From assembly GCA_038252885.1 (NCBI GenBank), contig JBBRZY010000001.1, positions 1-26,605 of the forward strand: DNA of 26,605 bases, written 5' to 3'. Position 1 is the first letter of the stretch. Each line of letters begins with the position of its first letter. The notes beneath the pieces were generated by a model. That model searched no databases, was not told where the DNA came from, and saw only the letters and a program-made list of their open reading frames with translations. This document shows positions 12,861-22,797 of this stretch, piece after piece. Both the position numbers and the translations under genes were made by a program. This DNA is from Anaerolineales bacterium (GTDB taxonomy: Bacteria > Chloroflexota > Anaerolineae > Anaerolineales > UBA6663).

Positions 12861-14648
<1,788 letters not shown>

Positions 14649-20052: not shown

Positions 20053-20666
20053 GGGGCCTCCGCTGTGAGGGCGCGGCGCGCCGCCCATTCGGCGCGCAGC
20101 AGGCCGTACATGAGAAGGTCCCAACGCTGGCCGTCGCGGGCCACGGCCTGGCGGCGGCGCACTTCGAGCGTGAAGGCGTTGCGCTCGCAGAAGCGGATGG
20201 CGCCGAGGTTATAGCCGCCGAGGTAGCCGGCCACGCGGTGCATACCCAGCTCGTCGAAGGTGTAGCGCAAAAGCAGGTCGAGCGCTTCTTGGCCGTAGCC
20301 CTGGCCACGGTCGGCTGGGTCGCCGATGCCTAGGCTGAGGACAGCGGCGCGGTGCATCCAGTCGAGGTTGTGTACGCGCGCAAAGCCAAGCAGCCGGTCG
20401 GGTGTAGGCGCGGTTGCGGCAGCGGCCTCCGTTGCGGGCGAGGCCGGGGCGCGCAGGCGCAGCGCGAAGTGAAAGGTCTTCTCGGCTTCCTTGGCGAGCT
20501 GTTCGTATTTCTTTTTCACCTGGGCCGGTGAGAGTGGGTGGGCCGGGGCGGTGTCGATCAGCCGCAGCCACTGGCCGGCGTGGGTCCAGGCGCTTTCGAT
20601 GGGCGCGTCGGGCTCGGGGTCGACGGCGGTGAGACGGACGCGCGGGCCTTCAAAGAGTTGGGTCAT
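20049..20666 (-). CDS. RimJ/RimL-type GNAT N-acetyltransferase, 205 aa
   Basis: LGIGDPADRGQGYGQEALDLLLRYTFDELGMHRV; SD GAGGAG; ATGA overlap with the ABC ATPase stop. Confidence 0.88.
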   Translation of the reverse strand: MTQLFEGPRVRLTAVDPEPDAPIESAWTHAGQWLRLIDTAPAHPLSPAQVKKKYEQLAKEAEKTFHFALRLRAPASPATEAAAATAPTPDRLLGFARVHNLDWMHRAAVLSLGIGDPADRGQGYGQEALDLLLRYTFDELGMHRVAGYLGGYNLGAIRFCERNAFTLEVRRRQAVARDGQRWDLLMYGLLRAEWAARRALTAEAP

Positions 20667-21487
20667 ACGGGCTCCTCGGCGGCCGGCGCGGGCCGGCGCG
20701 TGAGTGTGAGAAAGACGTCTTCGAGCGTGGCGCACGGCCCAGGGGCCAGGCGCTGCTTGAGGGCGGCGGGCGTGTCGAGCGCCACCAGCCGGCCGCTGTC
20801 GACGACGGCCACGCGGTCGCACAGGCGCTCGGCTTCGGCCATGTCGTGCGTGGTCAGCAGCACGGTGGTGGCGTGCGTGGCGCGCAGCTCTTGGATGAAG
20901 TCTTGCACGTCGCGGCGGGCGCGCGGGTCGAGGCCGGTGGTGGGCTCATCGAGCAGCAGCACGCTCGGCTCGGCCAAAAACGCGCGGGCGATGGTGACCT
21001 TTTGCTGTGTGCCACGGCTGAGGGCTTCCATGGGCCGGTAGAGCGCGGAGGCGGGCATGCCCAGCCGTTGCAGCAGTTCGACGACGCGGCGGCGCGTTTC
21101 GGCCGGGCGGCTGGCGTATTGCCGCGCGCCATATAGCAAGTTCTCGATCGGCGAGAGCTTCTTAAAGAAGGCGGCGTCGGGCGCGACCGGGCCGAAGCGG
21201 CCAAAGGCGGCCGGCGCGGCGGGGTCGTGGCCGAAGAGCGCCACCTGCCCGGCGTCGGGCGCGAGCTGCAAGGCCAGCAGGCGCACCAGGGTGGTCTTGC
21301 CGCTGCCATTGGGGCCGACGAGGCCGAAGATCTCGCCGCGGTGCACGTCGAAGGTGAGGTGATCGACGGCGACGGTGGCGCGGGCCGGCCGCAGGGTGCC
21401 GCCGTTGGGAACGCGGGTGAGCGGGCTATGAGGTTGGGGGGCAAAAGTTTTCACCGCGTTGTCGACGCGGATGGCCAGGTCTGACAT
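20663..21487 (-). CDS. ABC transporter ATP-binding protein (DrrA-like exporter type), 274 aa
   Basis: Walker A GPNGSGKT, signature LSRGTQQK, Walker B LLLDEPT, H-loop LTTHD; SD GGGGAGG before ATG 21487. Confidence 0.9.
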   Translation of the reverse strand: MSDLAIRVDNAVKTFAPQPHSPLTRVPNGGTLRPARATVAVDHLTFDVHRGEIFGLVGPNGSGKTTLVRLLALQLAPDAGQVALFGHDPAAPAAFGRFGPVAPDAAFFKKLSPIENLLYGARQYASRPAETRRRVVELLQRLGMPASALYRPMEALSRGTQQKVTIARAFLAEPSVLLLDEPTTGLDPRARRDVQDFIQELRATHATTVLLTTHDMAEAERLCDRVAVVDSGRLVALDTPAALKQRLAPGPCATLEDVFLTLTRRPAPAAEEPV

Positions 21488-21518
21488 CGGAACCTCCCCA
21501 GCGCGCAAGCACTGAGCG

Positions 21519-21560
21519 AAAAAAAGGGCCGTGAGCGAAGGAACTTCGCGCTCACGGCCC
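21519..21560 (-). terminator. leader terminator T2
   Basis: GGGCCGUGAG(CG)CGAAG-uuc-CUUCGCUCACGGCCC, 15 bp with a 2-nt bulge, followed by U7. Confidence 0.85.
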
Positions 21561-21578
21561 GCTCAGGGCTTGGTCGGT

Positions 21579-21619
21579 AAAAAAAAGGACCGTGGGCGCT
21601 ATTGCGGCGCCCACGGCCC
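21579..21619 (-). terminator. leader terminator T1
   Basis: 13-bp stem GGGCCGUGGGCGC / GCGCCCACGGUCC, 7-nt loop, followed by U8. Confidence 0.85.
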
Positions 21620-21644
21620 AGGAAGTCCGTTTAGAAGAACGGGT

Positions 21645-21740
21645 TTACTCTGGGCAACAGGCGCAATCCGACATAGAAAATCCGCCAACGGGGGCGCTGG
21701 TGGCGGCGATGAGAAAATCGGGCTTCTTGAATGTCACCAT
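21645..21740 (-). CDS. putative 31-aa leader peptide MVTFKKPDFLIAATSAPVGGFSMSDCACCPE
   Basis: Only ATG-initiated reading frame found between the promoter and T1; SD is weak or distant (AAGAAAGG 16 nt upstream); inner ATG gives MSDCACCPE. Confidence 0.55.
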   Translation of the reverse strand: MVTFKKPDFLIAATSAPVGGFSMSDCACCPE

Positions 21741-21775
21741 ATGTCGTGAGCCTGTGCCTTTCTTAGAGTGGGTGC

Positions 21776-21805
21776 AGTCTACCATAGGGCGGCGGGCGAA
21801 GTCAA
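21776..21805 (-). promoter_or_regulatory. sigma70-type promoter of the GNAT operon
   Basis: TTGACT, 18-bp spacer ending TG-n, TAGACT; A/T-rich tract just upstream. Confidence 0.7.
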
Positions 21806-21860: not shown

Positions 21861-22063
21861 CAGGGCAATCGCATGTTAGTTCCGTAGGTTGAGAAATACT
21901 CAAAAGCTGCTCCGAAATTGGACCTGGCTGTGACCACCCGAGACGCTGCGCGTCACCCCCCACAGAAGGAGCGCTGAGATGAGCGACCTGACGGGGGGCT
22001 TCGAAATGACAGTTAAACGGGGCTGGTCAGTCAACGCCGTGCAAATTAGATGCAATTGCCCTG
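21861..22063. mobile_element. 203-bp MITE / internally deleted IS, ISAs1-like ends
   Basis: 14-bp terminal IRs CAGGGCAATCGCAT / ATGCAATTGCCCTG (13/14) flanked by a 10-bp direct repeat CCTTTACGCC (21851-21860, 22064-22073); no transposase. Confidence 0.85.
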
Positions 22064-22065
22064 CC

Positions 22066-22095
22066 TTTACGCCCGGCGCGATTTATAGGTATCAT
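22066..22095 (+). promoter_or_regulatory. putative promoter of the rightward operon
   Basis: TTTACG, 18 bp, TATCAT; the -35 lies inside the duplicated target site. Confidence 0.45.
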
Positions 22096-22170
22096 GTTCG
22101 GCATGAATGGCATGACTGCTTCGCCCTTGAGTCTCCCGAGTGCTCAGCCTGTGGCGCTCCCGGTGCATCT

Positions 22171-22797
22171 GTGAAACTGGCCATCTTCGGCGCTACCGGG
22201 CAGACCGGGCGGTTGGTGGCGCAGCAGGCGCTGGCAGCGGGGCATGGCGTGACGGCGCTCGGGCGCGACCCGGCGCGGGTGACGCCGGCGGCCGGCCTGC
22301 GGCTGGTGCGCGGCGATGTGCGCGACGCGGCGGCGGTGGCGCAGGCGATTGAGGGGGCAGAGGCGGTGGTGAGCGTGCTGGGGCCGAGCCGCAACGCGCC
22401 GGACTTTGCGGTGAGCGCGGGCACGGCCAATATCGTGGCGGCCATGCGCGCCGCCGGCCTGCGCCGGTTGATCGTGACCAGCGGCGCGGCGGTGCGCGAT
22501 CCGTTGGATCGGCCGGGGCTGTTCGACAATTTGATCGCGGCCTTGGTGCGGCGCGCGGCGCGGTATGTGTATGAAGACATGGCGCGGACGGTGGCGCTGG
22601 TGCGCGCCAGCGATTTGGATTGGACGGTGCTGCGCGTGCCCCGGCTGACCGATGGCCCGGTGACCGGCCGCTGGCGTCTGGGCTATGTGGGGGCGGGCAC
22701 CGGCCTGCGCCTGGCGCGCGCCGACCTGGCCGGGTGTGTGCTGGCGCAGTTGAACGACCCAGCTTATGTGCGGCGGGCGCCGGCGGTGAGCAATTAG
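22171..22797 (+). CDS. NAD(P)H-binding protein (BVR-B / flavin reductase-like atypical SDR), ~208 aa
   Basis: MKLAIFGATGQTG Rossmann start at GTG 22171; VRGDVRD, VVSVLG, DLDWTVLRVPRL; frame is open back to ATG 21979. Confidence 0.85.
   Translation: MKLAIFGATGQTGRLVAQQALAAGHGVTALGRDPARVTPAAGLRLVRGDVRDAAAVAQAIEGAEAVVSVLGPSRNAPDFAVSAGTANIVAAMRAAGLRRLIVTSGAAVRDPLDRPGLFDNLIAALVRRAARYVYEDMARTVALVRASDLDWTVLRVPRLTDGPVTGRWRLGYVGAGTGLRLARADLAGCVLAQLNDPAYVRRAPAVSN

Follow-up and report, generated by a model that had tools for sequence, protein, structure and literature searches.

A two-terminator leader precedes a run of resistance-type genes

The DNA analysed here (26,605 nucleotides (nt); contig JBBRZY010000001.1 of assembly GCA_038252885.1, hereafter the window) comes from an Anaerolineales bacterium of the phylum Chloroflexota, recovered from a sediment metagenome in an assembly of 5.35 Mb. 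We studied a leader, a candidate transcription attenuator, that lies directly in front of a gene for a DrrA-like ABC ATPase; all features of the leader are on the minus strand of the window (Table 1). An earlier note on this DNA had described a promoter, an open reading frame (ORF) of 31 codons ending in CACCPE, and two terminators in series, T1 (segments 1 and 2, with U8) and T2 (segments 3 and 4, with U7). All of these are present. Segments 1 (GGGCCGUGGGCGC) and 3 (GGGCCGUGAGCGC) differ at a single base, as had been noticed, and the four proposed pairings exist, with computed duplex energies in the window of -24.3 (0:1), -31.2 (1:2), -24.9 (2:3) and -28.1 (3:4) kcal/mol, where segment 0 is the RNA block that holds the Cys codons at the end of the ORF. 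A fifth pairing, between segment 0 and an upstream segment, A, has a duplex energy of -25.0 kcal/mol.

Table 1. Positions of the leader features and of the first regulated gene in the window.
Feature	Position	Strand	Details
Promoter	21805-21776	-	-35 TTGACT 21805-21800; 18-nt spacer with TG extension; -10 TAGACT 21781-21776; found by scan
GAAAGG, Shine-Dalgarno (SD)-like block of the leader ORF	21757-21762	-	nearly invariant in alignment A1
Segment A, GGCACAGGCUCACGACAU, predicted anti-antiterminator between SD and AUG	21741-21758	-	pairs with segment 0
Leader ORF, 31 codons and TAA (MVTF...SMSDCACCPE)	21645-21740	-	ATG 21740; TAA 21647-21645
Intra-ORF hairpin CCAGCG-CCCC-CGUUGG, then U-rich tract	21685-21700	-	flagged as terminator-like; present in predicted folds
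Segment 0, AUGUCGGAUUGCGCCUGUUGCCCAG, RNA block with the 'Cys codons'	21650-21674	-	pairs with A or segment 1
Spacer hairpin CCGUU-CUUCUA-AACGG, between stop codon and T1	21627-21642	-	in predicted folds; enclosed by the 0:1 helix
Terminator T1	21579-21619	-	segment 1 21619-21607; loop; segment 2 21599-21587 (13-bp stem); U8 21586-21579
Terminator T2	21519-21560	-	segment 3 21560-21548; loop; segment 4 21538-21526; U7 21525-21519
CGCUCAG, 3' strand of an outer helix	21512-21518	-	pairs with CUGAGCG 21565-21559; brackets T2 and its U tract; in predicted folds
First regulated gene, DrrA-like single-domain ABC ATPase	20663-21499 (including SD)	-	SD GGGGAGG 21499-21493; ATG 21487; Pfam ABC_tran

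The promoter is strong and of the sigma-70 type, and its TTGACT...TGnTAGACT arrangement is also kept in homologues. The SD-like block reads GAAAGGAG in more distant members, in which AAAGGAG is found 8-14 nt 5' of the leader AUG. The product of the leader ORF is MVTFKKPDFLIAATSAPVGGFSMSDCACCPE, and its last eight or nine codons are spanned by segment 0, whose columns are invariant in alignments A1, A2 and A4. Hairpins equivalent to the intra-ORF hairpin are visible in homologues, most of which also have a hairpin of different sequence at the position of the spacer hairpin. The fold of the whole leader has a z of -5.9 relative to shuffled sequence. Because the gene 5' of the leader (21979-22797, plus strand) is divergent, the T1 and T2 hairpins do not form the end of that gene. 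The outer helix CUGAGCG:CGCUCAG around T2 was seen only in the closest relatives (L010, L011).

The element recurs in the class Anaerolineae

When the window was compared with relatives by BLAST, the conserved parts proved to be the promoter, the 5' untranslated region (UTR), and the stretch from the 3' end of the ORF through both terminators; the middle of the ORF is not kept. A covariance model (R1), built on the part from segment 0 to T1 only, matched all 23 genomes of the family. In the order it matched 55/151, spread over 13 of the 18 families, and in the class Anaerolineae 46/151; a phylum-level sample gave matches in only a few genomes beyond the class. Two R1 matches from another Chloroflexota class (L208 and L212) were rejected as false positives, being plain terminators after a membrane-protein gene with a similar stem, AAGGCCGUGGGUU...AACCCACGGCCUU. 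A loose DNA pattern scan of genome contigs gave 120 listed matches, mostly chance, and the six real ones are Anaerolineae or Chloroflexota metagenome-assembled genomes.

We also rejected the idea that the T1/T2 stem is a genome-wide repeat or a common style of terminator, since the other exact 13-mers and GCCGTG...CACGGC+TTTT matches are all intragenic, in coding DNA. In the organism's own genome this type of stem with a T run occurs here only, the two other pattern matches lying within coding DNA. This uniqueness, together with the same layout in every genome of the family, places the element beyond chance. Searching the whole window against Rfam 15 gave zero matches at the gathering score and only chance-level matches at relaxed thresholds, and a full-text literature search returned no description of such a leader in Chloroflexi. 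Among the sequencing runs checked there was no RNA run containing this organism. Two metatranscriptome runs, one from wastewater and one from soil, yielded contigs with about 90% similarity to the window that extend across T2 into the beginning of the ABC gene (21413-21563).

Segment 0 can pair with segment 1 in competition with T1

T1 itself is well supported by covariation, with double-sided changes at 10 of 12 pairs and 95% of alignment cells paired. The earlier note had proposed that the Cys-codon block pairs with segment 1 and so blocks T1, and this pairing recurs in the homologues. In the register proposed for 0:1, 92% of the alignment cells are paired, as against 20-58% in slid registers. 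When the stretch from segment 0 to segment 1 was folded on the alignment columns for 49 order-level homologues, the 0:1 helix, closed by the small spacer hairpin, appeared in the minimum-free-energy fold of 48 of them. The mean energies over homologues are -21.9 kcal/mol for 0:1 and -23.3 kcal/mol for T1, and in the window the corresponding stretches fold with -27.8 and -29.3 kcal/mol. Thus, the two structures are nearly isoenergetic and hence close competitors, as an attenuator requires.

Changes in the T1 stem also respect the alternative helix, in that substitutions at columns 89-91 (G to A, U to C and G to A) leave the pairing to U32, G33 and U34 of segment 0 intact. A base of the T1 loop, the second nt after GGCGC of segment 1, covaries with the base 5' of UGCGCC in segment 0, U occurring with A or G, and G with C. 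This pair can form in 45 of 54 sequences, a number reached in 0 of 5000 shuffles (shuffled mean 28.5), and the loop base has no role in the T1 stem. The same test detected no covariation with segment 0 at the adjacent loop positions. With a ribosome footprint modelled on the AUG, segment 0 invades the base of T1 and removes the bottom four pairs beside the U tract. Taken together, the alignments support 0:1 as a predicted, conserved antiterminator of T1 whose formation would be mutually exclusive with that of the terminator.

The leader ORF is read in three frames and ends at a fixed place

A single ORF of about 24-37 codons is present in 65 homologous leaders, in keeping with the earlier proposal of an attenuator that is probably translated. 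It starts with an ATG 55-95 nt 5' of the core, UGCGCC, and, whatever the frame, stops 9-28 nt beyond the U of UGCGCC. The block conserved at the RNA level is CCUUGUCG(U/G)A(U/G)UGCGCCUGUUGCC, and it is translated in three different frames. In 31 of the 65 leaders, including that of the window, it reads ...LS(Y/D)CAxC(P), in 30 it reads ...PCR(S/I)AP..., and in the remaining 4 ...LVVLRLLPVS. Within the first of these frames, the middle Cys is swapped for D, W, L, Y or S. The N terminus of the peptide is variable among homologues, and L070 and L074 are related by an in-frame 6-nt indel; the retention of the ORF together with this indel argues that the ORF is translated. What is conserved is the RNA sequence and the place where translation ends, rather than the peptide. 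The earlier note had suggested that conservation of the peptide be checked among orthologs, and in these 65 leaders the C-terminal peptide is not kept.

These frames bear directly on the Cys codons, which had been put forward as the sensor. A cysteine-sensing attenuator, in which a shortage of Cys-tRNA slows ribosomes at the Cys codons, would resemble the polycysteine upstream ORFs of mycobacteria. The window peptide does end in CACCPE, and cysteine-responsive polycysteine leader ORFs are described in the available part of one report (bioRxiv 10.1101/834739). However, fewer than half of the leaders read the block as Cys codons at all, the middle Cys is replaceable in those that do, and the downstream genes encode ABC ATPases, GNAT acetyltransferases and ABC-F proteins rather than enzymes of cysteine metabolism. 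Additionally, stalling on the block would place the ribosome over segment 0, to the benefit of termination. We consider this explanation extremely improbable, and, judging from the homologues, the Cys codons are a by-product of the RNA sequence and not the sensor. The case is a caution that 'regulatory codons' are not safely read from a single sequence.

The same freedom of frame speaks against a functional peptide. The small ORF could encode a precursor of a ribosomally synthesized and post-translationally modified peptide or a Cys-rich metal-binding peptide, with the hairpins as its own leaky terminators that set the ratio of peptide mRNA to downstream transcript. A short product with a Cys-rich C terminus, followed by ABC and acetyltransferase genes, fits such a cassette. 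Against it stand the reading of the C terminus in three frames, the variable N terminus, and covariation of the block, as RNA, with both the 5' UTR and the T1 loop. The window has no cyclodehydratase, radical SAM, LanM-type, MNIO or protease gene, nor is any maturase family found among the first downstream genes of the homologues, where the gene after the leader may be an ABC ATPase, a GNAT, an ABC-F protein, an exporter or a RIO kinase. Since the block is read in three frames, we reject both this explanation and Cys-tRNA sensing, and give the peptide equally little credence.

A motif of two basic residues, R/K-x-R/K (+x+), occurs in 20 of the 65 leaders, as against 8.4 expected, and as RLR in 10. 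The R-L-R of this subset matches the +x+ macrolide arrest motif of ErmDL and MefAL, whose MRLR it resembles in the available portion of the source (PMC10314930). It lies near codons 10-12 and is encoded with differing synonymous codons in L147, L148, L159, L160, L163, L175-L177, L192 and L198.

The start region of the ORF can sequester segment 0

Between the SD and the AUG lies segment A, whose core, GGCGCA, is complementary to the UGCGCC of segment 0 and carries lineage-specific extensions. In some lineages A overlaps the first codons (AUGCGCAC...), and the reading frame across it is not kept, which marks A as an RNA feature. In the minimum-free-energy fold of the full leader, segment 0 is partnered with A. 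Cognate A:0 duplexes average -19.5 kcal/mol and non-cognate ones -17.2 kcal/mol, a value as low as the former arising in 0 of 5000 permutations (p < 2e-4, ignoring kinship). An ungapped anchor test gave weak support (p ~0.04) and breaks down where the helix is bulged, which makes the energy-based permutation the better measure; A:0 and 2:3 were judged by energies and by lineage examples.

Among these examples, compensating variants combine UAUUGCGCC with GGCGCAAUA, and (G/U)AGUGCGCC with GGCGCACU(A/C). L203 has a perfect 10-bp variant helix, GGCGCACUUC:GAAGUGCGCC, and L070 a perfect variant of its own, GGCGCAAUAC:GUAUUGCGCC. GCGUC is matched by GACGC or GAUGC in L188, L190 and L191, and in the latter two segment 0 (GCGUC), A (GACGC, GAUGC) and segment 1 (GGACGC) have changed jointly. 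We regard A:0 as a further helix, a predicted anti-antiterminator, whose dependence on the position of the ribosome was modelled with footprints. The earlier note had overlooked segment A and supposed that a leader uncoupled from translation favours read-through; with A free to pair with segment 0, the model points the other way, and untranslated RNA should terminate. The block is under constraint from three pairing partners and yet translated in three frames, a natural example of an RNA constraint overriding the peptide.

The 5' arm of T2 changes with that of T1

Most class-level homologues, and 38 of the 49 at order level, have a T2. The T1 motif GCCGUG(G/A)G is always found in the 5' arm of T2 as well, although the two terminators differ in their loops and distal stems. 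Where T1 has flipped to GCCACGG...CCGUGGC, T2 has flipped in parallel (GCCGUG to GCCACG), so that L202 has GACCGUGG in both terminators, and L181 has CCGCAGGCG in T1 with CCGCAAGCG in T2. Mean 2:3 duplex energies are -19.4 kcal/mol for cognate, -16.0 for non-cognate and -10.2 for shuffled segments. In 15 sequences, segment 2 (GCUCACGGCC) makes perfect Watson-Crick pairs with segment 3 and G·U pairs with segment 1, and in many T2 has U·G where 2:3 has U-A. In the window the stretch from segment 2 to segment 3 folds with -22.3 kcal/mol and the T2 hairpin with -26.5 kcal/mol. The parallel changes in the arms fit selection for 2:3, as the proposed cascade needs, and the upkeep of 2:3 complementarity while the stems change is consistent with a cascade that would release both terminators. 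A test of orthologous leaders had been suggested for these helices; T1 covaries and 0:1 and 2:3 are kept, by measures that ignore phylogeny. A single terminator is found in members 5' of ABC-F genes and in one group of the DrrA type, which indicates that T2 is an add-on to the core switch.

The likeness of the two stems also invites an explanation by factor-dependent antitermination, in which the T1 and T2 hairpins are sites for one RNA-binding protein or small RNA and the ORF is secondary. The stem GGCCGUGGG...CCCACGGCC is indeed unusually conserved and common to T1 and T2 across the class, and equilibrium folding alone does not give the ON state. Hairpin loops are the usual contacts of proteins. 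Here, the loops vary, apart from the bases complementary to segment 0, and where the stems change from GUG to ACG the opposite strand compensates fully. Furthermore, a factor would leave the ORF with its fixed stop and the pairing of the start region with segment 0 unexplained, and no candidate regulator gene is linked in the window. We judge factor-dependent antitermination unlikely, if the least unlikely of the alternatives weighed here.

Genes under the leader

The earlier note had placed resistance-type genes, ABC-F genes included, under this kind of control, and matches to Pfam and NCBIfam, in the window and among the first genes of 39 homologues, bear this out. About 16 co-directional genes follow the leader, including about ten GNAT genes and one ABC-F gene. 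Three of the GNATs are of the RimJ/RimL type, several have tandem domains and one is Eis-like; a nucleoside hydrolase, a HAD hydrolase and a nitrilase-family protein are also encoded. The ABC-F gene (12861-14648, minus strand) matches the NCBIfam equivalog 'ribosomal protection-like ABC-F family protein' with 424 bits at a cut-off of 380. The match of the first ATPase to the NCBIfam drrA subfamily is below its cut-off. The second-best NCBIfam match of this ATPase is the ribosome-associated ATPase RbbA, and its gene (20663-21487) is adjoined by no permease gene, with GNAT genes directly next.

In the 39 homologues, the first gene after the leader encodes an ABC ATPase in 28 (6 of them ABC-F proteins and 3 exporters that have a membrane domain); in 9 it encodes a GNAT, and in one a RIO-type kinase. 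Heterodimeric-type ABC exporters follow leaders L179, L183 and L184. In the Anaerolineae homologue L067 (3302-4318, minus strand), the leader precedes a gene for a RIO1-like protein kinase.

In all homologues examined for targets, the element lies directly 5' of resistance-type genes and is co-directional with them. This constancy argues against the T1-terminated leader being mainly a trans-acting small RNA, perhaps with a small protein, after the manner of rnTrpL and peTrpL of Sinorhizobium, with the conserved block as its seed. An abundant terminated leader transcript would be expected, and the available parts of two reports describe small RNAs and leader peptides derived from attenuators with antibiotic-linked roles (PMC7298713, PMC7968998). 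In the present leaders, the internal alternative pairings account for the conserved bases. We think such a main role improbable, slightly more so than an antitermination factor; a small-RNA role could be added to attenuation rather than replacing it.

A model of ribosome-dependent attenuation

From the computed anatomy, conservation, covariation and energetics, we infer translation of the ORF, an order of folding, an inducing condition and the formation of 2:3. We think it likely that the element is a ribosome-dependent transcription attenuator of five RNA segments through which slowed ribosomes turn the operon on. Segment 0 would be contested between A, the anti-antiterminator, and segment 1, the antiterminator, while segment 2 could be taken by segment 3. 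Without translation, A:0 would form, T1 would then form and transcription would stop. During normal translation, the ribosome would reach the stop codon and cover segment 0 while segments 1 and 2 emerge, so that T1 would again form. Leakage through T1 in this OFF state would be caught by T2, which could fold because segment 2 is locked in T1. If the first ribosome were instead held at the start, early or middle codons, A would be covered or kept from segment 0, leaving the latter free. In this ON state, 0:1 would form before segment 2 is transcribed, free segment 2 would capture segment 3, and neither terminator would form. It is possible that the intra-ORF hairpin with its U-rich tract, just 5' of segment 0, is an RNA polymerase pause site, which could couple polymerase to ribosome.

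The most likely signal is slowed or stalled translation, as caused for example by ribosome-targeting compounds, over the supply of one amino acid. The variable N-terminal peptide and the freedom of frame, like the targets of the resistance type, speak for a general sensor of slow translation. Beyond the individual leader, we tentatively propose, at a little less than an even chance, a class-wide regulon switch of the Anaerolineae whose input is how far the first ribosome has progressed, and no codon or peptide, with a domino of 0:1 and then 2:3 opening two serial terminators. If true, it would give very low leak with full inducibility to a battery of acetyltransferases, ABC-F proteins and exporters. 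As a design, swappable arms would link two terminators so that one antitermination event frees both.

Several observations weigh against attenuation as proposed here. The equilibrium fold of the whole window leader with A blocked still favours T1 and T2. Since equilibrium favours OFF over ON, the ON state has to be a kinetic trap, which other attenuators also use. The conservation of segments 0 and 1 is so high that support for 0:1 comes mostly from conservation and one-sided changes, with double changes in few lineages, and the covariation statistics take no account of phylogeny. T1 and T2 could conceivably be alike through common ancestry or because one protein recognizes both. In the window, the A core has one mismatch (GGCUCA), with CGACAU:AUGUCG as an added pairing, the SD-like GAAAGG is 16 nt from the AUG, and the leader peptide contains no R/K-x-R/K arrest motif. 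Lastly, the RNA-library contigs over T2 belong to relatives, and their source may be either read-through RNA or DNA contamination.

The leader would establish a previously undescribed RNA family, one without a match in Rfam 15, as a marker of inducible operons of the drug-defence type throughout a class of abundant, poorly studied environmental and wastewater bacteria. It could also serve to read out the regulon, namely ABC-F genes, GNAT arrays, DrrA-like ATPases and exporters.

Comparison with known attenuators

The kind of switch is well known from the bmrB- and vmlR-type attenuators. In Bacillus subtilis, ribosome-targeting antibiotics induce read-through into bmrCD, for which the bmrB leader has to be translated (Reilman et al. 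2014, PMC4191407). Both systems have a leader ORF, translated in bmrB and probably so here, and an intrinsic terminator 5' of ABC transporter genes. In bmrB, however, the terminator is single and lies within the ORF, whereas the present ORF stops 5' of two terminators that are probably coupled, and its start region can pair with its end; we know of no sequence relationship between the two.

The attenuators of the E. coli trp and his operons (PMC1183508) likewise use mutually exclusive anti-antiterminator, antiterminator and terminator helices, and follow the logic of our model, in which no translation or a ribosome at the stop leads to termination and an early hold to read-through. Unlike these, the present leader lacks a series of regulatory codons for one cognate amino acid, and its targets are not biosynthetic. 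Its first helix takes its 5' strand from the ribosome-binding and start region, not from codons within the ORF, and a second terminator is linked through the predicted 2:3 pairing.

A general sensing function has a precedent in the toiL upstream ORF of E. coli, a proposed sensor of several classes of ribosome inhibitor in which stalls at varied codons remodel the downstream RNA (PMC12121999). That ORF controls translation of topAI and Rho-dependent termination, without intrinsic terminators, and has no homology to the present leader.

The leaders of vmlR and other ARE ABC-F genes (PMC9226507) and those of msrDL, mefAL and ermDL (PMC10314930) share with ours, in the excerpts of these sources available, a short upstream ORF, alternative helices and a terminator 5' of ABC-F or resistance genes. 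Polymerase pausing is invoked there as well, and specific arrest peptides are needed, whereas the C-terminal peptide in our leaders is free to change frame. The same excerpts make no mention of tandem terminators with swappable arms, and the present leaders differ from these also in belonging to the phylum Chloroflexota. Our family does contain an ABC-F subclass like the ARE ABC-F leaders (L164-L166, L171, L172). The ABC-F-linked leaders (L164-L166, L171, L172, L196, L204 and L206) have one terminator, directly 5' of the ABC-F start, and no clear A segment. They resemble leaderless mRNAs, with TATAAT followed after 6-10 nt by the ATG; their peptides start M-x-Y, and the block is read ...(P)CRIPPA...

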